A stretch of DNA of 33,895 bases from Actinomycetota bacterium (GTDB lineage Bacteria > Actinomycetota > Acidimicrobiia > IMCC26256 > VFJJ01): the NCBI GenBank assembly GCA_009886115.1, contig VFJJ01000204.1, positions 1-33,895 of the forward strand, in the 5' to 3' direction. The position numbers and the translations under genes are program-made. Below, one piece after another: positions 8,126-33,895 of the stretch (its first letter is position 1; each line of letters opens with the position of its first letter). The notes beneath the pieces are model-generated. The model was not told where the DNA came from. It did no database searches and worked only from the letters and a program-made list of their open reading frames with translations.

Positions 8126-8362
8126 ATGACAACGACGCAAGTGGCTGTGCGGCTCCCGAGCGAGCTCCTCGAGAACATCGATGTCCTCGTGGGGATGTCG
8201 TTCGAGTCACGCTCCGACGTCATCCGGCAGGCGATCGAGCAGTTCCTGTACCGCCATGCTTGTGAGCGCGACGCCCGAATCTACGAGTTGACGCCGTTCA
8301 GCGATGCCGAGCTGGCCCTGGGTGAAGATCTCGAGTCGTGGAAGCTCACACCCGCGTGGTGA
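8126..8362 (+). CDS. Ribbon-helix-helix (CopG-type) antitoxin, MazE-like
   Basis: QVAVRLPSELLENID...SRSDVIRQAI RHH pattern, acidic C-terminus, overlaps the toxin start. Confidence 0.85.
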   Translation: MTTTQVAVRLPSELLENIDVLVGMSFESRSDVIRQAIEQFLYRHACERDARIYELTPFSDAELALGEDLESWKLTPAW

Positions 8363-8667
8363 GGGGTGAGGTCTGGTGGGCCACGGTGCCCGGTGGAGAG
8401 CGGCCGGTGCTCGTCCTCACCCGTGATCCCGTGGCCGACCGGATCGGCGCTGTGGTCGTCGCGGCGTGCACCCGAACGGTCAGGGGTGTGCACAGCGAGC
8501 TCGCGCTGGGGCCCGCCGACGGCATGCCCGAGGCCTGCGTCGCCAACTTCGACAACCTCCACACGGTGCGGCGCAGCGCGTTCCGAGAGCGGATCACCCA
8601 GCTCGGCGTGGAGCGCATGAGCGAGGCGTGTCGCGTCCTCGCCCACGCCCTGGCCTGCGTCGACTGA
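8359..8667 (+). CDS. mazF: PemK/MazF family endoribonuclease toxin
   Basis: RGEVWW...RPVLVLTRD...VVVAACTRTVRG..SE...CVANFDNL. GTGA overlap with the antitoxin stop (start 8359 or 8356). Confidence 0.88.
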   Translation: MRGEVWWATVPGGERPVLVLTRDPVADRIGAVVVAACTRTVRGVHSELALGPADGMPEACVANFDNLHTVRRSAFRERITQLGVERMSEACRVLAHALACVD

Positions 8668-8691
8668 CCGACCACCTGATCGTCGATGGTG

Positions 8692-9285
8692 TCAGACCGT
8701 GAGCGCGGCCACGATCTCGTCGAGGACGGCGGCGATGCGCTCGCTGCGCACCTCGACCGTCTCCTCGTAGTAATCGTTGGGGACCACCACGTAGCGCAGA
8801 TCGGGCAGGCCGAGCAGCCGAGCGTTCGCCGCCAACGCCGGCACGAACGGCGGGGTCACCAGCGTGACCGTCGGGATGCCCATGCGCTCCAGGTTCACGG
8901 CGTCGAGCACACTGCCCGACGTGCACGAACCTCATTTGGCGAGGCCGTTTACGACCCCCGAGCAGCTCCGCAGATGGGCGAGCAGCTCGTCGCCGGCGGG
9001 CCGTGACAGCACCGGCTTGCAGATCCGCGGCGAGTCGGCGAGGACGGCCGTCCCGTAGCGGCGCCGCAGCCCAGCCTCGATCTCGATCGTGTAGCCGTAG
9101 AAATCGGGTCCCTGCTGGCGGCTCTGCTCGTTCACCATGAAGCCGATCAGCCCGTCCATGGCGGGCATGCGCGGCGCCAGCCCGATGGAGGACTGCTCGC
9201 GCACCTGGCCTCGGGGATCGACGATCTCCATACGCCCCTTGGGCTCGACGTTCGCCACAACGTTTCGTTCCCCGGCGTCGCTCAT
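8692..9285 (-). CDS. UGSC-family candidate selenoprotein 1 (197 aa, in-frame TGA at 8932-8934 read as Sec118)
   Basis: ORFs 8932..9471 and 8692..8910 are in the same frame, joined by GCC AAA TGA GGT TCG TGC ACG (A-K-U-G-S-C-T). ATG 9285 overlaps the upstream stop (ATGA). A hairpin follows the UGA. Confidence 0.85.
8892..8931 (-). promoter_or_regulatory. Candidate bacterial SECIS hairpin directly 3' of the UGA
   Basis: GGUUCGUG-CA-CGUCGGGCA-(GUG)-UGCUCGACG-C-CGUGAACC: 8-bp and 9-bp stems including G-U pairs, with the loop G at +20 from the UGA. Confidence 0.65.
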
Positions 9286-10346
9286 GGTTCCTCGATCTCC
9301 CTCGTGACGGCGTAACCGCCGAGATGACCCCAACCTGGGCACACGACCGCCCACGGGATGCTGTCGGCGCCGCTGACCATGACGTGGATGGCCTCGGGCC
9401 GCTCGACGCAGGGGACGAGCGTGTCGTCGCTCGACTGGTCGACCCACGCGGGCCACCATTCGTACCACCACCGGGGATCGTTGTCGGGCCGGCGGGGCGA
9501 ACGCGGCCGGAGATCGCCGAGTCGCCGTCGGGCCAGCCGGAACAGCGTGTCCTGCACTGCGGTGCGGTCGAAACCGTGCCGTGCCAGGTGCCGCGCCTCC
9601 GACGGCGAGAACACCACGAGAGCCTCGCCCATGGTGTGGGCGTTGTTGTTGCCGAGCCCGGCGAGATGGTCGGCCACCTGGCCGAGGCGCTGCTCGGGAT
9701 CGTCGCCCACTCCCCAGAACGACACGCTCTGCGGGCTCTCACACGCGAACACCAAGACTGCGCTCCGGCCGGCACCGGCGCCCGCCATCGACGGCCAAGG
9801 CGTGTTGTCGGGCTCCTCGGCGATGCAGAACGCCAGCCGCCCGGGATGGCCGAAGACCTCTTTCACCGGATCGCCCGGCCGAGCACCACCCAGGTTCCAG
9901 AGCACGAGCTTGACCGCCCGACCGATGGCCACGTTGGCCCGGGCACCACCGCCGCTGAACACCGACTCTGTGGTGGCCATCCCAAGCCGGCCGACGGCCG
10001 GCCCCGACACGATCACGAGGGGCCAGCAGCCGTGGGTGGTGCAGGCCACGCCCCTGAGGTTGAAGCGCTCGTCGAGCATGGCCTCGATCGCCGCGACCAC
10101 GACCGGCATGTGCTCGGGCAGGCAGCCGGCCATGGCGGCGTTGGCCGCGACGGCCTCCACGGTGGCAATCCCGTTCCGAGGGGGAACGAGCCCGATCTCG
10201 GCGTGGGCTTCCCGGCCCGTCGCCGCGACCAGTGCATCGACGATGGCCCGGTCGGGCGCGAACGTGGGAAGCCCGTCGGTGAGGCCCAGTCGGTACGAGA
10301 GCTCGGTCCACGCCCCCGGCTCGATCGTCGACGGGAGACCGTCCAT
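9282..10346 (-). CDS. Conserved hypothetical 'DGLP' protein, partner of UGSC protein 1
   Basis: GLTDGLPTFAP, TVEAVAANAAMAGC, IGRAVKLVLWNLGG and FGHPGR; clear paralog of 27563..28618. Start 10346 has a GGGAG RBS; alternatives are 10370 and 10388. Confidence 0.85.
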   Translation of the reverse strand: MDGLPSTIEPGAWTELSYRLGLTDGLPTFAPDRAIVDALVAATGREAHAEIGLVPPRNGIATVEAVAANAAMAGCLPEHMPVVVAAIEAMLDERFNLRGVACTTHGCWPLVIVSGPAVGRLGMATTESVFSGGGARANVAIGRAVKLVLWNLGGARPGDPVKEVFGHPGRLAFCIAEEPDNTPWPSMAGAGAGRSAVLVFACESPQSVSFWGVGDDPEQRLGQVADHLAGLGNNNAHTMGEALVVFSPSEARHLARHGFDRTAVQDTLFRLARRRLGDLRPRSPRRPDNDPRWWYEWWPAWVDQSSDDTLVPCVERPEAIHVMVSGADSIPWAVVCPGWGHLGGYAVTREIEEP

Positions 10347-10405
10347 GGTTGCTCCCGGTCCCTCGGGCATGACGGTGCGAGTGTCCATTGAGTAGAACCT
10401 CGCTC

Positions 10406-11230
10406 ATGAGCGCACTGACGGGCAAGACGGCACTGATCACCGGCGGCGCTGGGGGCATCGGACGGGCGACGGCCGAGGTCCTCGCCCGCGATGGGGCCCA
10501 GGTCACCATCGCCTCCCGCAGCGCCGGACACCTCGAGGAGGTCGCCGATCGGCTCGGGCCCAACGTGCGCTGGACGGTGTGCGACGCCACCGTTCCCGAG
10601 CAGGTGCTGGCGGCCATCGCCTTCGCCAGCGAACCCACGGGCCGTCTCGACATGGCGGTCTCGGTGCCCGGCGCCGGGCTCATGAAGCCTCTGTTGATGA
10701 CCGGCGACGACGAGTTCATGGCCGACGTCGACTTCAACGTGCGGGCCCCCTACCTCATGATCAAGCACGCCGGTCGACAGATGGCCCGCGACGGCGGAGG
10801 GGCGATCGTGGCGATCTCGTCGACGGCGGCCGTCCAGCCCGCGCGCTACCTGGCCTCGTACTGCGCAGCGAAAGCCGCCGTCGACATGATGTGCCGCGTC
10901 GCGGCCGACGAGCTGGGCGCGGTCGGGGTGCGCGTGAACGTGGTGCGTCCCGGGCTCACGGCCACCGATGCGCCCGCGGGCATGATCGCCAACCCGCAGA
11001 TCGTGGGCCTCTACATGGAGCAGCAGCCCATCACCCGGGTCGGCGAGCCCGACGACATCGCCCAGGCGTGTCGCTATCTGGTGGGTCCCGAGTCGTCGTG
11101 GGTCACCGGGCAGTGCCTCACGATCGACGGCGGTCACACGCTGCGGGCCTTCCCGCATCTCATCGGGCTCATCGAGTCGCGCTGGGGGGCCGACGCCGTG
11201 GCCCGCGGCATGCGCGGCGAGCTCGACTGA
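10406..11230 (+). CDS. Short-chain dehydrogenase/reductase (SDR)
   Basis: TGGAGGIG, YCAAK, VNVVRPG and VTGQCLTIDGG motifs. Confidence 0.93.
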   Translation: MSALTGKTALITGGAGGIGRATAEVLARDGAQVTIASRSAGHLEEVADRLGPNVRWTVCDATVPEQVLAAIAFASEPTGRLDMAVSVPGAGLMKPLLMTGDDEFMADVDFNVRAPYLMIKHAGRQMARDGGGAIVAISSTAAVQPARYLASYCAAKAAVDMMCRVAADELGAVGVRVNVVRPGLTATDAPAGMIANPQIVGLYMEQQPITRVGEPDDIAQACRYLVGPESSWVTGQCLTIDGGHTLRAFPHLIGLIESRWGADAVARGMRGELD

Positions 11231-11280: not shown

Positions 11281-13005
11281 TCAGGACGGGCGCACGACCA
11301 CGCCGGGGAGCGCGCCGGTGATCTCGCCGTCGATCACGATGGGCACACCGTTGACGATCGTGGCGTACACACCCATGGGCCACGAGCGCCAGCGGCCTTC
11401 GCCGTTGGGGAAGTCGTGCACGAACTCCTTGCGATCCGGGGCGATGGTCTCCGGGTCGAAGACCATCAGATCGGCAGCGAAGCCCGGCCGGATCTGGCCC
11501 CGGTCGCTGAAACCCGCCAGCGACGCCGGGATCTGGGTCATCAGGCGGACGGCCTCTTCCAGGCTCCAGCCACCCCATTGCCTGACCCAGCGGTCGAAGA
11601 ACCACGACGACCACTCAGCGCCGTCATCGCGGTCGAGGTGGGCTCCACCGTCGGACACGCCGACGATCATGTGCGGATCGCCGCCGGCGGTGCGGGTGCG
11701 CGCTCGCCAGGCGTCGGTCTCGGTGGCCCACAGCCATTCGGTCTCGAGATCATCGGCCAGTGCCAGGTCGAGCATCACGTCGACCGGTGCTCGTCCCTGC
11801 TCGCGTGCGATGTCGGCGACGGTCCGACCGACGAGAGCGGTGTGCTCGTGCCTGGTCACCCGGTTCACGAACAGCATCGACCATCGGGGCGGCGGCAGCG
11901 TCGGCCCGGCGGCAGGGTCACGATTGGGGTTCTCGACATCGGAGCGGATCTCGTCGCGGAAGGCCGGATCGCGCAGCATGGCCATCCGCGCCTCGACGTC
12001 CGAGGCCTCTCTGAACATCCGGTTGAACCGGAGGCACCCTTCGTACAGCGTGGTACCGGCCGCCAACGTGAACGTGCGATTGAACGGCTTGGCCATCAGC
12101 ATCGAGTAGACGGCGGCACCCCGGGCCGAGGCGTCGTCGACGAAGAGCCGGGCGCCGTCCCACGCATCGCCGACGGCGCCGACCTTGGAGCCCGCGCCCA
12201 GGCCCTGGATGATGACGGGCACCCGTCCGGCCAGCGACAGGCGGATCAGCAGCTCCTGGTCGGCATCGTCGAGCCCACCGATCGAAGACAGCGGCAGGTA
12301 GCCGACGCTGCCGGCGTTGGCCCGTCCGGCCGCGACCACGAGCGCTTCGAGCTCGTCGACCGAGGCGAGGCGGCTCGGCACGGGACGGTCGAACGAGTCG
12401 AGGTGGGTGGGCGCGTGGCTCGACGAGAACCCGGCCGCGCCGGCAGCGACGGCGTCGGCGACGATGACCACCATCTCGGCGATCTCGGCCGCGGTCGCCT
12501 CCCGCTGGTAGCAGTCATCGCCCATCACCCAGCGCCGCACCGCCGAATGACCCACGTAGCACGCCAGGTTCACGCCGAGACGGCCCTCCAGCGAGGCCAG
12601 GTACTCGGGGAACGTCTCGAAGCCCCACGGCAGGCCCTGCAACGCCTTGGCCGACATGCCCTCGACCCGGGCGAACATCTGCACGATGAACTCGCGGTCG
12701 GCGGCCCGGGTCGGGGCGATCGAGAAGCCGCAGTTGCCGGCCAGCACCGTCGTGACACCGTGGAAGCACGACGACGTGGCGTAGGGCTCGAAGGTGACCT
12801 GCGGGTCGTAGTGGGTGTGGATGTCGACGATCCCCGGCGCCACACACCGGCCGGTGGCGTCGATCACCTGGTCGGCATCGGCCGGGTCGACGAAGCCGAC
12901 GGTGGCGATGCGCCCGTCCTTCACGCCCACGTCGGCGCGGCGCCGGGGCAACCCCGTCCCGTCGACGACCGTCCCGCCGACCACCGCCAGATCGAACCGC
13001 GACAT
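11281..13005 (-). CDS. N-acyl-D-amino-acid deacylase-like amidohydrolase
   Basis: VVDGTG, PGIVDIHTHYD, GVTTVLAGNCG, SDGGAH and GFAADLMVFDP motifs. Confidence 0.92.
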   Translation of the reverse strand: MSRFDLAVVGGTVVDGTGLPRRRADVGVKDGRIATVGFVDPADADQVIDATGRCVAPGIVDIHTHYDPQVTFEPYATSSCFHGVTTVLAGNCGFSIAPTRAADREFIVQMFARVEGMSAKALQGLPWGFETFPEYLASLEGRLGVNLACYVGHSAVRRWVMGDDCYQREATAAEIAEMVVIVADAVAAGAAGFSSSHAPTHLDSFDRPVPSRLASVDELEALVVAAGRANAGSVGYLPLSSIGGLDDADQELLIRLSLAGRVPVIIQGLGAGSKVGAVGDAWDGARLFVDDASARGAAVYSMLMAKPFNRTFTLAAGTTLYEGCLRFNRMFREASDVEARMAMLRDPAFRDEIRSDVENPNRDPAAGPTLPPPRWSMLFVNRVTRHEHTALVGRTVADIAREQGRAPVDVMLDLALADDLETEWLWATETDAWRARTRTAGGDPHMIVGVSDGGAHLDRDDGAEWSSWFFDRWVRQWGGWSLEEAVRLMTQIPASLAGFSDRGQIRPGFAADLMVFDPETIAPDRKEFVHDFPNGEGRWRSWPMGVYATIVNGVPIVIDGEITGALPGVVVRPS

Positions 13006-13171
13006 GACCCCGCTCCCCTCCGACGAACCGCCCGCCGAGACCGGCCAAGGGTAACGAGCGGACCAGGTTCGATCATCCTCGCTGCAGCGTCCGGGGCTCT
13101 ACGATGCCCGTCCCTGGGCCGGTACGGCAGCCCCGGGCGATAACGACCGGCGATGACGACAAGGGGATCTC

Positions 13172-13924
13172 ATGCGAGGGTTGAACGGCAAGGTCGCGGC
13201 AGTGACCGGCGCGGCGTCGGGGATCGGCCAGGCGACGGCCATCAGGCTGGCCGAGGAGGGCGCATCGGTGGCCTGCCTCGACCTCAACGTCGACGCCGCC
13301 GGGGCGACCGCAGCGACCATCACCGGCGCCGGGGGACAGGCCCTGGCGGTGCGCTGCAACGTGGCTGACGCTGGCGACGCCGCGGCGGCGATCGCGGCGA
13401 CGGTCGAACGCTTCGGTCACCTCGACGTGCTCTGCAACATCGCCGGCATCGGCCACTTCGCCGACGACCGCACCGAGACCCTCGAGTGGTGGAACCGCAT
13501 CATCGGCGTCAACCTCACCGGCACGTTCATCATGTCGCAGGCCGCGCTCCCCCACCTTCTCGAAACCAAGGGCACCATCGTCAACACGGCCTCGACGGCC
13601 GCCATGAAGGGCCAGCCCTGGAGCTCGGCCTACTCGGCCAGCAAGGGAGGCGTGATCGCGCTCACCCAGACGATGGCCGTCAACTGGGCCAAGCTGGGTG
13701 TGCGCGTGAACTGCGTCGCGCCCGGGGGCGTCACCACACCGATCACCGACCAGTTCACCGACGTGCCCGAGGGCGCCGACCTCGAGCTGATGGCCCGCAT
13801 CATGCCGTTCTCACGCTTCGGCGAGCCCGCCGAGCTGGCGTCGGTGTTCGCCTTCCTGGCCTCCGACGAGGCCTCCTACGTGAACGGCTTCGTCGTGAGG
13901 GTCGACGGCGGCATGCAGATGTGA
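13172..13924 (+). CDS. Short-chain dehydrogenase/reductase (SDR)
   Basis: TGAASGIG, NIAG, YSASK, VNCVAPG and VDGG motifs. Confidence 0.95.
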   Translation: MRGLNGKVAAVTGAASGIGQATAIRLAEEGASVACLDLNVDAAGATAATITGAGGQALAVRCNVADAGDAAAAIAATVERFGHLDVLCNIAGIGHFADDRTETLEWWNRIIGVNLTGTFIMSQAALPHLLETKGTIVNTASTAAMKGQPWSSAYSASKGGVIALTQTMAVNWAKLGVRVNCVAPGGVTTPITDQFTDVPEGADLELMARIMPFSRFGEPAELASVFAFLASDEASYVNGFVVRVDGGMQM

Positions 13925-27562: not shown

Positions 27563-28618
27563 TCAGAACCCTCGAGTGACGGCTTGGGTGTTGCCCCAGC
27601 TGTGGATGGCGGCCGAGTGGAGGTTCCCGAGACCGCCGCACACCATCACCAGCACCGAGGCCGGGCGTTGGGCCAGGTGCACACGACCGTCGGTCGCGAC
27701 CCGGCCGGCGTCGGTGAGCGCCCGCTGATGGGCCGGCGGCCACCACTCGAGCGGGAGGCTGGCGTGTCGGTGGAGCAGCTCCTGCACATCGTCGATCGCG
27801 GGGACGTCGCGCCCGATGATCTCGGCCCACATCGGGTTGATGCAGACCAGGAACTCACTGTCGGGGCAGGCGACGAGGTAGCCGTTGGTGCCCATGGAAG
27901 CGACGGACTTCCCGATGATCTCCAGCAACTCGGTTCCGGTGGTGGCCACGGTGTCGCAGATGTTGGCCGTCCCCATGGCGCCGAACACGGTGACGGCGTC
28001 GCCGCGCACACCGCGTCGAACGGCGAGCGGTGCCCAGGGCGACCGGTCCTCCCATTCGCCGACCACGACGCCCGTCACCCGGCCGGGCTGGCCGAACACC
28101 GACTGCGATGTCGTCCCCACCACGTGCCCGGCGACGTTGCGCATCACGAGTCGCAGCGCTCGCCCGATCGCCGGCGCGGGGCCGGCCACGCCACCGAAGC
28201 AGCCGGCCCGGTACGGGACCCCCAGCCGGTCGCGGACCGGCCCGTTGACGAACACCGCTGGTACGACCGATCCCGTGGTGGCGTTGAGCCCGGCCAGGTC
28301 AAAGGTCGGCTCGACCATGGCTTCGAGCGCCGCGCACAGCAACGGCATGGCGTCGGAAGGCGCGCCGGCCATCACCGCATTGACGGCGAGGGCCTCGACG
28401 GTGCACACCCCGTTCGCCGGTGGGAGCACGGCCACGACGTCGTCGGACCGGCGTGTGGAGCCGGCCAGCATCGCCAGCACCCGCTCCTGCGTCGGGGGCA
28501 CCAGCGGCAGCCCGTCGCCCCAGCCCTGCTCGGCCGCGAACTCGGTGAACCCGACGACGTCGAGATCGACCTCGACCCGCTCGGCGCGGAGCACCGCGTC
28601 GGCCGCGGAGTCGGTCAC
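27563..28618 (-). CDS. Conserved hypothetical 'DGLP' protein, partner of UGSC protein 2
   Basis: GWGDGLPLVPPT, TVEALAVNAVMAG, IGRALRLVMRNVAG and FGQPGR. GTG start overlaps the upstream TGA. Confidence 0.88.
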   Translation of the reverse strand: MTDSAADAVLRAERVEVDLDVVGFTEFAAEQGWGDGLPLVPPTQERVLAMLAGSTRRSDDVVAVLPPANGVCTVEALAVNAVMAGAPSDAMPLLCAALEAMVEPTFDLAGLNATTGSVVPAVFVNGPVRDRLGVPYRAGCFGGVAGPAPAIGRALRLVMRNVAGHVVGTTSQSVFGQPGRVTGVVVGEWEDRSPWAPLAVRRGVRGDAVTVFGAMGTANICDTVATTGTELLEIIGKSVASMGTNGYLVACPDSEFLVCINPMWAEIIGRDVPAIDDVQELLHRHASLPLEWWPPAHQRALTDAGRVATDGRVHLAQRPASVLVMVCGGLGNLHSAAIHSWGNTQAVTRGF

Positions 28619-29169
28619 GGTGTCACTCCCAGGCTGCGCAAGAGCTCGGGCAGGAACCTCGCGGCGATCATGCGCACCTCGGTCTCGGGCTGGGTGTCGA
28701 GGGGATACGGCAAGATGACCAAGGGCAGCTGCGCTCGTCCGGCGCTGGCCGCCAGGGTCTCGCCCAGAGCCCGGAACTGCTCCGTGCAGACGGCGACCGC
28801 CGCCTTGTGCCCGTCGACCACGGCGAGAGCGTCGTGGATCGTCCAGGCCGTGCAGGAGCCTCAGTTGGCCAGGCCCACCACGGCCAGGTCGACGCCGGCC
28901 ACGAACTCGACGAGCTCACGCTCCATGCGCCGACCCTCGTCGCCGCTGCGCGACCCGGTCCGCCAGCGGACGATCTCGGCGCCCCGGGCCTCGAGCTCGG
29001 CCGACCAGACCTCGCCGATCCAGTCCCACGACCGCCACATGTGGTCGAGCCTGAGCCCGACCTTCAGGCCCGACAGGTCGACGCCGACGGTCGACGTTGG
29101 TGCCGCGGCGCCGGCGGGAGCGACCGATCGAGTAGCGGCTACCGGGCTGAGGATGAGACCTCTCGTCAT
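28615..29169 (-). CDS. UGSC-family candidate selenoprotein 2 (184 aa, in-frame TGA at 28861-28863 read as Sec103)
   Basis: ORFs 28861..29313 and 28615..28821 are in the same frame, joined by GCC AAC TGA GGC TCC TGC ACG (A-N-U-G-S-C-T). GAGGGAG RBS before ATG 29169. Confidence 0.85.
28819..28860 (-). promoter_or_regulatory. Weaker candidate SECIS hairpin 3' of the second UGA
   Basis: CACGGC/GCCGUG lower stem and UGGA-(CGA)-UCCA upper stem. The loop is at +20..+22, the same offset as in locus 1. Confidence 0.4.
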
Positions 29170-29336
29170 CGCGCACTCCCTCGTTGGGGACCCCGACACC
29201 TGCCGAGGCCGTACAGAGCGTATCGGCCCTGATCGGACGAACTCCCGGTGCGGGAGCGGCAGCGGGTGGTGTGGAACCATGGGGCGTCCCCCCACGAGCC
29301 CAGTCGTTCCCACGCGACCGTCGACGGAGCACTCCC

Positions 29337-30563
29337 ATGGAATTCGGCATCTTCCTCAACGGCTACATCCCGGGGCCGGGGGCCCACGACACCGAGTGGG
29401 AGCACACCAAGCTCATGCGCGAGGCGAAGTACACGATCTTCGCCGACAAGCACAACTGGAAGTATGCCTGGTTCGGTGAGCACCACGCCCTCGTCGAATA
29501 CAGCCACATGTCGGCCCCTGAAGTCGTGATGGGCTATGTCGCGGGCCACACCGATTACATCCACCTCTCGTCAGGGATCAACAGCCTTTCTCCCCGCAAG
29601 GAGCACCCGGTTCGCTACGCCGAGCGGGCCGCCATGCTCGACCACGTCACGAACCGACGGTACGAGTGGGGAACCGGGCGCGGGGCCGGGAGCCACGAGA
29701 TGGCCAGCTTCAACATCATGGACAAGGACTCGACCAAGCCCGAATGGGAAGAGGTCGTCCGCGAGATCCCGCGGATGTGGGAGCAGGTCGACTACACCCA
29801 CCACGGCAAGCACTTCACGGTTCCGACGCCCCACAACATCCTCCCCAAGCCCTACGGCCCCGGCCATCCCCCGATCTGGGTCGCGTGCGGGAACCCGCCC
29901 ACGTTCGCCCGGGCCGGCGAGCTCGGCATCGGCGCCATCGCGTTCAACTTCGAACCCATCTACAACCTGCGGGGTCGGGTCGAGGCCTACAAGGAAGCCA
30001 TTGCCAACTGCACCGAGCCGCTCGGGCAGTTCATCAACGACAACCTGATGATGACCAACGGCGTTATCTGCCTGGAAGATCGCGAGCGGGCGCGTGCACT
30101 CGCGTTCGATCGGGTGAGTGGTTACCTCGTCACGATGGTGAACCTCTACCACGACACGATGCCGAAGTCACCCGATGCGATCACCTGGCCGAGCGCCCCG
30201 ATCCGCCTGCGCGACCTCGCTGGCAACGACCCCGACGCCTTCCTCGACTCGCTCATCGAGGGCGGCTACATGATGGTCGGCAACCCGGAAGAGGTCTCGA
30301 AGCAGCTCGAGAGCTACAAGACGGTCGGCTGCGACCAGCTCGTGTTCGGCATCCCGGGCGACCTCCACGACGACGAGGTGCTCGAGATGATCGAGCTCTT
30401 CGGCGACCGGGTCATCCCCGAGCACGACCCCGACCGGGTGCACTCCACCGACCGCTACCGGGCCACCGCCAAGCCCAAGTACGACAGGTTCTCGGCTCCG
30501 CTGCCCGAAGGCGTCGAATGGCCGACCGTCCTCCCCGTCACCGCCACCGGTGCCACCCCCTGA
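29337..30563 (+). CDS. LLM-class (luciferase-like) flavin-dependent oxidoreductase
   Basis: MEFGIF, WFGEHH..EYSH..APE, HPVRYAERAAMLD, GTGRG and PKP....HPPIWVA. Confidence 0.92.
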   Translation: MEFGIFLNGYIPGPGAHDTEWEHTKLMREAKYTIFADKHNWKYAWFGEHHALVEYSHMSAPEVVMGYVAGHTDYIHLSSGINSLSPRKEHPVRYAERAAMLDHVTNRRYEWGTGRGAGSHEMASFNIMDKDSTKPEWEEVVREIPRMWEQVDYTHHGKHFTVPTPHNILPKPYGPGHPPIWVACGNPPTFARAGELGIGAIAFNFEPIYNLRGRVEAYKEAIANCTEPLGQFINDNLMMTNGVICLEDRERARALAFDRVSGYLVTMVNLYHDTMPKSPDAITWPSAPIRLRDLAGNDPDAFLDSLIEGGYMMVGNPEEVSKQLESYKTVGCDQLVFGIPGDLHDDEVLEMIELFGDRVIPEHDPDRVHSTDRYRATAKPKYDRFSAPLPEGVEWPTVLPVTATGATP

Positions 30564-30685
30564 GCTACCTCATGGTCGGCCAGGACGGCGGCATCTTCTC
30601 CTTCTCCAACAAGACCTTCGCCGGCAGCCTCGGCGCCAACCCGCCCCCCAACCCCATCACCGCTGTCGCCGTCCTCGACGGGTGA
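30563..30685 (+). pseudogene. Orphan fragment of a surface-protein repeat: SYLMVGQDGGIFSFSNKTFAGSLGANPPPNPITAVAVLDG*
   Basis: Resembles the GYWLVASDGGIFSFG..F.GS.G...LN.PIVG repeat of actinobacterial secreted proteins. Coding-like codon usage, but no parent gene upstream. Confidence 0.6.
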
Positions 30686-30714
30686 ACCGACACGACCTCG
30701 ATGTCACCTCAGCG

Positions 30715-31299
30715 TCACCCCGGATCGGAACCGGCACGGGCACCGTCGCCGGCAGCGTCGTCGAGGCCCAGCACGGCCGAGAAGCGACCCATCAGGCTCA
30801 TGGTGCACACGAGCGCGAGCTCGACGATCTGTCGATTGTCGAAGTGCGCCCGCAGGGTGGCGCTGTCGGCGGCGTCGATGGAGAGGTGGTCGGTTCCGAA
30901 CTTCAAGGCGAAGCGCACGGCGGCCGTCTCGGCATCGCTCATGCCCGCAGGGTCAGCGCCGACCCCGCCATCGCCGAGCACGGAGGGGATGGCGCACACC
31001 ATGGTCTCGTCCATGCCCTCGGCGACCGCCCCAGGGAAGCGGCCGGCCATGCACACCCGACACCTGGTGGTGTTGGCGATCGCCAAGCGCACGAGCTCGG
31101 TGACACGGGCCCCGAGGTGGTTCGAAAAGCGCGACGCGGTGTAGGCGGCGTTGTAGAGGTCGAAGATCGGCTCGGCGTGGGCCATCACGGCCACGAACCC
31201 CGCCAGCCCCGGTCGTCCGGCTGCCAGCGCCCCGTCGAACTGCGTCCGCAGCGCCGGTGAGAGGTGCTCGGGGTTCATCGGCGTGACGAGTGGCTCCAT
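30715..31299 (-). CDS. Carboxymuconolactone decarboxylase / AhpD-like protein with CxxC
   Basis: TELVRLAIANTTRCRVCMAGR, E.AAVRFA and LRAHFDNRQIVEL. Confidence 0.85.
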   Translation of the reverse strand: MEPLVTPMNPEHLSPALRTQFDGALAAGRPGLAGFVAVMAHAEPIFDLYNAAYTASRFSNHLGARVTELVRLAIANTTRCRVCMAGRFPGAVAEGMDETMVCAIPSVLGDGGVGADPAGMSDAETAAVRFALKFGTDHLSIDAADSATLRAHFDNRQIVELALVCTMSLMGRFSAVLGLDDAAGDGARAGSDPG

Positions 31300-31331
31300 G
31301 ACATCCGAGCCTACGCACCACCACCCCCCGC

Positions 31332-31378
31332 TTCTTTGCGTCTGCGACCGCGCCGGGAGTGACCCCAGCCACAAAGAA
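31332..31378. repeat. 47-bp degenerate REP-like element copy 3
   Basis: TTCTTTGCGTCTGCGACCGCGCC-G-GGAGTGACCCCAGCCACAAAGAA. Left arm nearly identical to copy 2, right arm decayed, flanked by complementary C-run and G-run. Confidence 0.75.
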
Positions 31379-31460
31379 CGGGGGGGGTACCGGTTTTCTG
31401 GCCTGACGCCGGGCGCGAGCGCGAGGCTCGTGCCGATGGCGACGACGAACAGGAGCGGCC

Positions 31461-31871
31461 ATGACCGACGAGCAGCGCCGCCGCAACCTCGACGCCGTGC
31501 ACCGGGCCTTCGCGGCGATCGCCGAGGGCGATGCCGACGCAATGATGGAGAACTACACCGACGACATCGTCTTCGAGTTCCCGTTCTCCGACCCGCCGGC
31601 GCGCATCGAGGGTCGCGACGTGATGCGCGAGTACCTCAGGGGCGCGTTCGCAGGCCTGCGCTTGCGCCTGGAGATCACCGAGATCCATGAGACCATCGAC
31701 CCCGACCGCGTGGTGATCGAGATGGTCAGCTCAGGCCGGATCCTCAGCAACGCCAACCCCTACGCCAACCGGTACATCAGTGTGTACTGGTTCCGCGACG
31801 GCGCCATCAGCCACGTGCGGGAGTTCCTCGACCCGACGCTGTACGCCAAGACCCTCGCCGGAAACGGCTGA
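31461..31871 (+). CDS. SnoaL / NTF2-like (PhzA/B-like) protein
   Basis: AGGAG RBS; YTDDIVFEFPF, HET.DPD.V and YANRYISV..FRDG.I...REF.DP. Confidence 0.88.
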   Translation: MTDEQRRRNLDAVHRAFAAIAEGDADAMMENYTDDIVFEFPFSDPPARIEGRDVMREYLRGAFAGLRLRLEITEIHETIDPDRVVIEMVSSGRILSNANPYANRYISVYWFRDGAISHVREFLDPTLYAKTLAGNG

Positions 31872-31891
31872 GCGAGCGACGACAGCCGATC

Positions 31892-32764
31892 GTGCCCATC
31901 GAAGCCTGGCAGAACCTGGGGTTCACCGATCCGGCGATGCTGGGGCCACTGGCGCGCCTGGCCGAGGAGCTGGGCTTCGCCGGTGTGAGCCTGCCCGAGC
32001 ATCTCGCGACGCCCGAGACGATCGTCACGCCCAACCCGTACGTTCCCGGCGGCGGTTCGGGGTATGCGCCCGACACCCCGTTCCCCGACCCCTGGGTCAC
32101 CTTCGGGGCGTTGGCCGCGGTCACCGAGCGCCTTCGCTTCGTTGCCAACGTGTCGATACTGGCGCTGCGGCCGCTCGTGGTGGCGGCCAAGGCCATCTCG
32201 ACGGCGGCCGTCCTCTCGCAGAACCGGGTCGTGCTCGGCGTGGGTGTCGGCTGGCTGCGCGAGGAGTTCGAGGCCCTGGGCGTCGACTTCCGCACCCGGG
32301 GCAGACGCACCGACGAGATGCTCATGTTGTTGCCCCGCTTGCTCCGCGGCGAGATCGTGAGTGCCGACGACGAGTTCCACCGGTTCGCGGCGCTGTCGAT
32401 CTCGCCCGTCCCCGACCGAGCCCTGCCCGTGCTGGTGGGCGGGGTCAGTGACGCCGCGCTGGCCCGGGCCGCCCGGGTCGACGGGTGGATCGGTGTGAAC
32501 TTCGAGCCTGAGGTGCTCCTGCCCATCCTCGACCGGCTCGCAAGCGCCCGCAACGAGGCCGGGACGGCGGCGCGCCCGTTCACGATCATGGTCTCGCGTC
32601 CGCCCACGTTCTCGAACAAGGTGGCCCGGGCCTACGAGGCAGCCGGCGTCACCGCGATCGTCAACCGTCCCACGGGTTTCAGTGTCGGAACCGATGTCGA
32701 TATCGACGCCAGCCTCGACGCCCACCGGCGCGTCATGGAGGAGTTCCAGACCCTGCTCGCGTGA
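31892..32764 (+). CDS. LLM-class oxidoreductase, probably F420-dependent
   Basis: AEELGF..V.LPEH, PDPWV...ALAAVT, R..LGVGVGWLREEFEALG..F..RG.R.DE and VGG.S.AAL.RAAR.DGW. Confidence 0.88.
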   Translation: MPIEAWQNLGFTDPAMLGPLARLAEELGFAGVSLPEHLATPETIVTPNPYVPGGGSGYAPDTPFPDPWVTFGALAAVTERLRFVANVSILALRPLVVAAKAISTAAVLSQNRVVLGVGVGWLREEFEALGVDFRTRGRRTDEMLMLLPRLLRGEIVSADDEFHRFAALSISPVPDRALPVLVGGVSDAALARAARVDGWIGVNFEPEVLLPILDRLASARNEAGTAARPFTIMVSRPPTFSNKVARAYEAAGVTAIVNRPTGFSVGTDVDIDASLDAHRRVMEEFQTLLA

Positions 32765-32791
32765 GGGCAACCCGGCGTCGCGGGCGACGGG

Positions 32792-33778
32792 TCAAGCGCC
32801 GAGCACCGCAGGACGGACGACCGAGTCGAAGAGCTCGAGGCTCTCCCAGGCCAGCTCGGGTGACAGGCCGCCCATGAGCGGATGGAAGATCAGGTTGGCG
32901 TCGTCGGGCAGGGAGCGCCACAGCTCGATGCACGCCTCCGGCGTGACGACCGCGTGCATGCCGTAGGCGCGCAGGGCGTCGGCGTCGGTCATCGGCACGA
33001 AGCCCGTCTCGGTGCCGGACTCGGCCGCCCAGCGCCCGTACTCGTTCATCTCGTGCAGCGCGTGGGGCGCGATGCGCGCCCAGGCCGCGTCGGGGTCGTT
33101 GGCCACGTGCACGAAGAGCGGACCCGACGGGTTGTCGTAACGGGGGGTCTTGCCCAGCCGGGCGCACTCGTCCTCGTACACCTGCCTGATGGCGGGCTCG
33201 GGCGTCATGGCCATGAATCCGTCGGCCAGACGAGCTGCTCGGCGGGCGGTGGCCGCGGCGCCCCCGCCCACCAACACCGGCGGACGGGGTTGCTGCACGG
33301 GGGCCGGGGTCACCCGGAACGTGGCTCCCCGATAGGTGACCGGCTCACCGGTGAGCGCCGCCGTGTACACCGGGATCTTCTCCTCGATGAGCGCCACGCG
33401 GTCGGCCATGTCGAGGCCCAGCATGGCGAACTCGGCTGGCACGTACCCGAGGCCGATCGCGACTTCGACCCGTCCGTTCGAGATCTGATCGACGATCAGC
33501 GTGTCTTCGGCAGCGCGGATGGGATCGAGCAGCGGGAGGATCAACGCCCCGACACGGATGCGGGTTCGTTCGGTACGCGCCGCGACCGCAGCAGCCAAGA
33601 CCAGCGCGGACGGGAGGTAGCCGTCGGCCGAGCCGTGGTGCTCGGAGATCGTGATGCTGTCGACGCCTCGAGCGTCGGCCCACGCGCACTGCTCCAGCGC
33701 AGCCCGATACAGCGCCGGGGCCGGCGGACCGAACGCCGGCGCCCGCATGTCGTACCGCACGATCCACCGCTTCGACAT
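32792..33778 (-). CDS. LLM-class flavin-dependent oxidoreductase
   Basis: RYDMRAP, SEHHGSADGYLPS, AAVAART, DPIRAAED..D.ISNGR, GLGY and VGG..AARRAAR. Confidence 0.9.
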   Translation of the reverse strand: MSKRWIVRYDMRAPAFGPPAPALYRAALEQCAWADARGVDSITISEHHGSADGYLPSALVLAAAVAARTERTRIRVGALILPLLDPIRAAEDTLIVDQISNGRVEVAIGLGYVPAEFAMLGLDMADRVALIEEKIPVYTAALTGEPVTYRGATFRVTPAPVQQPRPPVLVGGGAAATARRAARLADGFMAMTPEPAIRQVYEDECARLGKTPRYDNPSGPLFVHVANDPDAAWARIAPHALHEMNEYGRWAAESGTETGFVPMTDADALRAYGMHAVVTPEACIELWRSLPDDANLIFHPLMGGLSPELAWESLELFDSVVRPAVLGA

Positions 33779-33819
33779 GATCTCTCTCCCGCTCACTCTC
33801 GGTTCCGACCGGCACTGCC

Positions 33820-33895
33820 GCTCACTGCTCACTGCTCACTGCTCACTGCTCACTGCTCACTGCTCACTGCTCACTGCTCACTGCTCACTGCTCAC
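33820..33895. repeat. Perfect 7-bp tandem repeat (GCTCACT)n, about 11 copies, running to the window end
   Basis: Read directly. One further GCTCACT at 33791. Confidence 0.95.

Follow-up and report, generated by a model that had tools for sequence, protein, structure and literature searches.

The minus-strand gene 9285..8692 of the window, by which we mean the whole analysed stretch of 33,895 nucleotides from an Actinomycetota bacterium, very probably encodes a selenoprotein of the UGSC family, 197 residues in length, with selenocysteine (Sec) at codon 118; the protein would act as a redox subunit paired with a 368-residue partner. As far as the sequence can tell, this gene has all the features typical of a bacterial selenoprotein gene. 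The first-pass annotation had suggested that this is a selenoprotein, and the suggestion is supported by the alignment of the UGA with Cys, by a covarying stem-loop, by the presence of a Sec apparatus in the genome, and by the conservation of the TGA in an ortholog and in other assemblies. The coordinates of the features are given in Table 1.

Table 1. Coordinates of the UGSC genes, their partner genes, and the associated signals in the window
Feature	Position	Strand	Details and basis
UGSC-family selenoprotein gene	8692..9285	minus	197 codons and terminal TGA 8692-8694; read-through translation, PF24696, GC3
In-frame UGA, codon 118, taken as selenocysteine	8932..8934	minus	aligned with the invariant U/C column of 35 homologs
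UGSC start region	9283..9300	minus	ATG 9285-9283; SD-like GGAG 9300-9297 and GAGGA 9293-9289; read from sequence
SECIS-like stem-loop	8891..8932	minus	lower stem 8932-8924/8899-8891; apical stem 8921-8913/8909-8901; loop GUG 8912-8910
Upstream partner gene, 368 aa ("Unknown_1" domain of Zhang and Gladyshev 2008)	9282..10388	minus	motifs, adjacency
Second UGSC selenoprotein gene	28615..29199	minus	PF24696 92.7 bits, E 3.9e-28; TGA 28861-28863
Second-module partner homolog	27563..28618	minus	E 2.7e-31 to the 368-aa partner; inferred start GTG 28618-28616

Reading frame across the in-frame TGA

The frame of the UGSC gene runs from the ATG at 9285-9283 through 117 codons to the TGA at 8934-8932 and then through 79 codons to the TGA at 8694-8692. 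Both SD-like runs, GGAG and GAGGA, lie no more than 16 nt upstream of the ATG at 9285. The split of the gene at the first TGA, reported in the first-pass annotation, is seen again in the table-11 ORF list, which gives 8932..9471 and 8692..8910 as separate ORFs. The read-through peptide reported there (...SGVVNGLAK-U-GSCTSGSVLDAVNLERMGIPTVTLVTPPF...) was reproduced letter for letter, and its junction motif is NGLAK-U-GSCTSGS. The downstream half had been described as lacking an evident ribosome-binding site; inspection by eye likewise revealed no GGAGG-like run before the GTG at 8910. GC3 in the frame of the gene is 0.89 before the TGA and 0.94 after it, while the other two frames have values of 0.71 and 0.44-0.47. 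This same-frame GC3 signature on both sides of the TGA indicates that coding continues across the stop. In turn, TGA closes 1392 of the 1667 long high-GC3 ORFs of the genome; it is an ordinary stop there, and thus there is no change of the genetic code. The expectation that standard annotation would not render the gene whole was borne out: its nearest matches in the database, four proteins of 117, 117, 117, and 112 aa, end at the TGA position or just before it.

An alignment to Cys-containing orthologs had been proposed as a check of the selenoprotein reading. In the resulting alignment of 35 family members (A2), which come from the same genome and from genomes of the same order and all match PF24696, the TGA column contains Cys in 7 sequences and TGA in 28. 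The motif positions U/C118, G119, and C121 are invariant in all 35; the form of the motif tested in the UGSC family was U/C-G-[SA]-C. The PF24696 matches within the order number 78 (61 genomes, 34 of which contain the family; three matches come from the unpublished genome G054), with exactly one in-frame TGA in 60 of them and none in 18. In the TGA-bearing genes that were extracted, the TGA occupies the U/C position of the motif without exception (29/29). A TGA found once in 60 of the 78 matches, and at the motif position in all 29 genes extracted, is not a chance stop. The Cys-form UGSC homologs are single uninterrupted ORFs.

The region can also be found in assembled contigs of sequencing runs. 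A 5277-nt contig of run X1, possibly the source sample of the window, covers positions 8600-9201 without any difference. A 3862-nt contig of X5, which belongs to another study, covers positions 8899-10400 with six differences, none of them at the TGA, and a 186-nt contig of X6, an RNA library of a third study, spans positions 8857-9042 with one synonymous difference. The evidence from X1, X5, and X6 consists of contigs, not reads, and the RNA library is no proof of transcription. The runs with a small share, X7-X14, were left out of the consideration of habitat; contigs of X7 cover the stretch only in part. The ortholog from a genome of the same genus (G001) retains both the TGA and the hairpin that follows it. 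Downstream of the TGA, this ortholog and the UGSC gene differ by 18 synonymous and 7 nonsynonymous codons, and this part of the frame is under purifying selection. One of the 12 hairpin codons differs between the two genes, and the difference is synonymous.

Stem-loop, Sec-decoding apparatus, and alternative readings of the TGA

The UGA and the subsequent 45 nt fold to -23.7 kcal/mol, forming two 9-bp stems stacked on each other, with GUG as the loop. In the alignment of 29 distinct Sec-type genes, one row of which comes from the genome G054, pairing in the 8-bp apical helix is preserved in 93.1% of the cells. Compensatory double changes were revealed in three pairs (15 cells), and the covariation score of the apical helix was reached by none of 500 shuffles. 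In the control, where the 3' arm was slid by 1-3 columns, pairing falls to 14-53%. The clearest covarying pair is CG in 17 rows and GC in 11 rows; it joins the third position of a Cys/Trp codon (TGC/TGG) to that of a Val codon (GTG/GTC), where the change is synonymous, so that protein conservation cannot account for the covariation at this pair. The conservation of the hairpin as a whole is partly confounded with that of the encoded peptide C-T-S-x-S-V-H-D.

At the SECIS spot, 22 of the 29 Sec genes versus one of the 7 Cys genes have a hairpin of -10 kcal/mol or lower, a count that omits one further Cys gene (L062) missed by the motif pattern. In seven Sec genes the hairpin is weaker or shifted, and the second UGSC gene of the window is among them: its motif is LAN-U-GSCTAW, and it has only a weak hairpin at this position (-3.7 kcal/mol). 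Hairpins are weak in the "LGN-U" subgroup, to which this second gene belongs, and the hairpin of the fused paralog is shifted. In turn, a Cys-form gene close to the subfamily of the UGSC gene, L056:1438-2013 (+) of genome G047, retains a hairpin of -10.5 kcal/mol; this could reflect a recent Sec-to-Cys change or be a by-product of the encoded peptide.

The wide 86-nt fold around the UGA is unexceptional (z = -1.0), and its minimum-energy structure does not contain the hairpin; folds of 48 nt and 24 nt were used in its place. E. coli fdhF represents the type of bacterial SECIS elements. Like these, the predicted stem-loop follows the UGA immediately within the coding region, and its apical hairpin, which starts 11 nt after the UGA, has a loop with G and U. 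It matches no Rfam family: at gathering thresholds, no family was found anywhere in the window, and thus no curated SECIS model applies. As a separate observation, the UGA with its hairpin (window 8898-8934) is the most conserved DNA of the UGSC family, and many contigs of other organisms in X5, X6, and X7 match only these ~36 nt and then diverge.

The genome assembly (224 contigs, 5.45 Mb, 95.6% complete) contains a tRNA-Sec, which at 66.2 bits exceeds the gathering score of 47 and has the anticodon TCA according to ARAGORN. SelB (293.7 bits), SelA (458.7 bits), and SelD (398.4 bits) were also found, each above its curated cut-off. Judging by these scores, tRNA-Sec, SelA, SelB, and SelD make up a complete Sec-insertion apparatus.

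Could the TGA have arisen through an error of sequencing or assembly, or through a recent mutation that inactivated the UGSC gene and left a pseudogene? Gene callers do stop at it, which is reflected in the lengths of the four closest database proteins (117, 117, 117, and 112 aa), and the agreement with X1 is not independent if this run is the source sample of the window. However, the same TGA occurs in the same-genus ortholog, in the X5 and X6 contigs, in all eight UGSC paralogs of the genome, and in 60 of the 78 matches of the order, and the frame after it keeps a GC3 of 0.94 and an 18:7 relation of synonymous to nonsynonymous differences. Such an origin of the TGA is extremely unlikely, and the explanation is close to refuted. 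The probability that two separate genes are present, one for a 117-aa protein and the other for a 72-aa protein starting from GTG 8910, is practically negligible. Despite the fact that the table-11 list offers the 72-aa ORF 8692..8910, the PF24696 match runs through the TGA as a single domain (positions 1-171 of 172), the five-stranded sheet of the AlphaFold2 model draws on both halves, the Cys-form homologs are uninterrupted, and no SD-like run precedes 8910.

A different objection concerns the fate of UGA118 under real growth conditions, where it might mostly terminate translation or be read as Cys or Trp, the full-length selenoprotein being a minor product. Release factor 2 is a competitor of Sec insertion, which also depends on how much selenium is available, and both circumstances, along with the unremarkable wide 86-nt fold, speak for this possibility. 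We nevertheless consider it very unlikely, given that no component of the Sec apparatus is missing, compensatory changes preserve the hairpin, and the part of the frame downstream of the UGA is under purifying selection; moreover, with only marginal read-through it would be difficult to see why eight genes of this kind are maintained.

Family membership, predicted fold, and partner gene

UGSC selenoproteins were described in 2008 (PMC2398784). According to that description, they are commoner in non-marine samples, their fold is "likely" thioredoxin-like, which is a guess, and the family can be seen fused to the Unknown_1 domain. A 2016 census gives 33 UGSC selenoprotein genes in 26 organisms (PMC5029168), and the reviews of 2022 and 2026 present the family as still uncharacterised (PMC9312934, PMC13188914). 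The UGSC gene itself is thus not new, as its family has been catalogued since 2008 (PMC2398784; NF041046; PF24696). It had been called a hidden gene in the first-pass annotation; this is true for gene callers and does not hold for the literature, where the UGSC selenoprotein family has long been known. With the family as presented in PMC2398784, PF24696, and NF041046, the 9285..8692 gene shares the same full-length domain, the U-G-S-C motif, and the Sec/Cys alternation. The association with Unknown_1, reported in PMC2398784 as a fusion, is likewise found in it. A search of the full-text literature outside subscription journals revealed no functional assignment for UGSC, nor any protein-level or selenium-labelling data for a UGSC protein.

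With C in place of U, the UGSC product matches the Pfam family PF24696 ("UGSC family") over its full length, with an E-value of 1.9e-30 and 106.7 bits against a cut-off of 25 bits. The match to NCBIfam NF041046 ("UGSC family (seleno)protein") has an E-value of 9e-20 and 71.2 bits, covers only positions 36-147 of 147, and does not reach the curated equivalog cut-off of 125 bits. Two of the 12 UGSC proteins scored reach this cut-off, namely the C179 paralog (144) and L034 (157.4). Given the score below the cut-off and the partial coverage of the profile, the UGSC gene is a somewhat divergent member. NF041046 is narrower than PF24696. Compared with the NF041046 proteins, the N-terminal part of the UGSC gene product is longer and matches poorly.

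The AlphaFold2 model of the UGSC protein (pLDDT 87, pTM 0.80) has a beta-alpha unit repeated five times and a five-stranded sheet. Sec118 is located in this model between the strand 110-116 and the third main helix, 119-134. Flavodoxin-, CheY-, and TIR-like proteins are the best structural matches (AzoR in Foldseek with a TM of 0.39; VIA-align Z of 9-10.6). No chain with the thioredoxin fold, in which the redox motif is placed at the N-terminus of helix 1, is present among the structural matches listed. The fold is predicted to be flavodoxin/CheY-like and not evidently thioredoxin-like, in contrast to the guess in PMC2398784. Since matches of the flavodoxin/CheY/TIR type are generic and the arrangement is common, no function can be drawn from the fold. 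A profile search of solved structures with UGSC gave nothing below an E-value of 0.23. The partner was also modelled (pLDDT 87, pTM 0.88); the best Foldseek match to its model, class I fumarate hydratase, has a TM of 0.27, and the best VIA-align match has a Z of 6.4, within the noise stated for this method, so that neither search gave a convincing solved relative.

The partner ORF 9282..10388 ends at the start of the UGSC gene, and its stop codon TGA (9284-9282) overlaps the UGSC ATG as ATGA. No Pfam or NCBIfam family was found for the 368-aa partner, and in the protein atlas it corresponds to unnamed clusters only, plus one cluster that probably holds fusions. It bears the AxNAxMAGC...TT...V(N/S)GP motifs, as printed for Unknown_1 in Fig S1A of PMC2398784. 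In the alignment of the partner family (A3), D-G-L-P, N83, G88, and E191 are invariant and C188 is nearly invariant. In several members, Ala takes the place of the M-A-G-C cysteine to which attention was drawn in 2008 (PMC2398784).

The genome contains eight PF24696 genes, each with one TGA. A partner homolog adjoins or is fused to all eight, and the fusion, in one frame, is located on contig C193. In the relatives, a partner homolog was found within the 1.5-kb flanks of 29 of 29 loci, one of them from the genome G054, for Sec and Cys forms alike. The copy number of eight differs from that of the other genomes of the order, which have 1-4 PF24696 matches, with nine, fragments included, in the genome of the same genus. 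In a sample of 401 genomes of the phylum, where up to eight candidates per genome were scored, the family is present in 28, with 1-3 copies in all except this genome. As for the second module of the window, we propose that the start of its partner gene overlaps the UGSC stop as GTGA, provided that the start call is right. The partner on contig C179 (L064:2367-3827, +) is 487 aa long and has an N-terminal extension of ~140 residues with a C-P-T-C motif. This extension is conserved over its full length in the loci of relatives; no Pfam family was found for this partner at E <= 1e-5, and a thioredoxin domain is not claimed.

Varied oxidoreductases and hydrolases are encoded around the eight modules; the catabolic genes named there are those of luciferase-like monooxygenases, SDRs, P450s, and amidohydrolases. 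There is no third gene common to all eight modules, and luciferase-like monooxygenases occur near three of the eight, in a survey that is incomplete because the GC3 ORF filter dropped some ORFs. Just upstream of the first module, an Amidohydro_3 gene (11281-13005, -) is located between two genes of short-chain dehydrogenases, or SDRs (10388-11230, + and 13157-13924, +), and the start of the first SDR gene abuts that of the partner gene at 10388. On the other side, the gene of a ribbon-helix-helix antitoxin (8126-8362, +) overlaps that of a PemK/MazF-like toxin (8338-8667, +) by 25 nt; this pair (8126-8667) is convergent with the UGSC gene and ends 24 nt from the UGSC stop codon. The second module (27563-29199, -) is divergent from a luciferase-like monooxygenase gene (29157-30563, +). 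Two more such genes, 31892-32761 (+) and 32795-33832 (-), and a SnoaL-like gene (31461-31868, +) are found in the cluster beside it (window 29157-33835).

Proposed function and significance

In the proposed mechanism, SelB with Sec-tRNA(Sec) would bind the mRNA stem-loop just after the UGA and outcompete release factor 2. Sec would be delivered to the UGA codon 118, and the ribosome would continue for 79 codons to the real stop. Sec118 would then be located at the N-terminal end of an alpha-helix after a beta-strand and would form the U-G-S-C redox pair with the invariant Cys121. UGSC may form a two-part enzyme together with the 368-residue, translationally coupled product, in which case UGSC would be its small redox subunit. 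The chemistry would consist of cycling between a selenenylsulfide and the reduced selenol/thiol, and the partner would supply substrate binding. The motif, the predicted position at the helix N-terminus, and the obligate gene pairing all point to a selenol/thiol centre serving the partner. Gene order and fusion suggest that UGSC and the partner may bind each other.

Selenoprotein B of glycine/sarcosine/betaine reductase and D-proline reductase (GrdB/GrdF/GrdH, PrdB; TIGR01917, TIGR01918) acts together with a larger subunit, the gene of which lies alongside its own. Two of the 12 UGSC proteins weakly match the Sec region of the glycine reductase (GrdB) models, with E-values from 5e-5 to 3e-4. 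Their matches to TIGR01917 (E 5.4e-5 and 1e-4) are located at profile positions ~332-410 of 431. The best scores among the 12 proteins are 19.7 bits for TIGR01918, the cut-off of which is 65.45, and 22.3 bits for TIGR01917. The 9285..8692 gene has no match to the GrdB/PrdB models at E <= 0.001. In the general family and structure searches with the partner, no similarity came up to GrdE or PrdA, which are self-cleaving pyruvoyl proproteins. The proteins also differ in size: UGSC has ~180 aa, whereas selenoprotein B of the GrdB/PrdB type has ~430 aa. PrdB has a UxxC Sec motif, as given in Table 2 of PMC2398784. The weak GrdB matches may serve as a lead towards GrdB/PrdB-like chemistry and nothing more.

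The UGSC gene adds a member to its family and no new principle. The main by-products of the analysis are that the module has expanded eight-fold in this genome, that the curated NCBI model performs poorly for these sequences, and that the predicted fold differs from the published guess. The UGSC gene and its seven paralogs are called as truncated fragments, and NF041046 would miss most of them. Given that only 2 of the 12 proteins tested reach the cut-off of this model, and that the genes are called as fragments, the selenoproteome of the lineage is undercounted. With eight intact modules that share the same partner family, this genome is a convenient one for testing what the pair does. It is tentatively suggested, and we regard this as rather doubtful, that UGSC and its partner are the two subunits of an undescribed selenium-dependent enzyme class, distantly akin to selenoprotein B of glycine and proline reductases, with eight substrate-specialised versions among catabolic oxidoreductase genes. 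If this were true, this freshwater-sediment actinobacterium would use selenium mainly for the breakdown of organic compounds, not for antioxidant defence.
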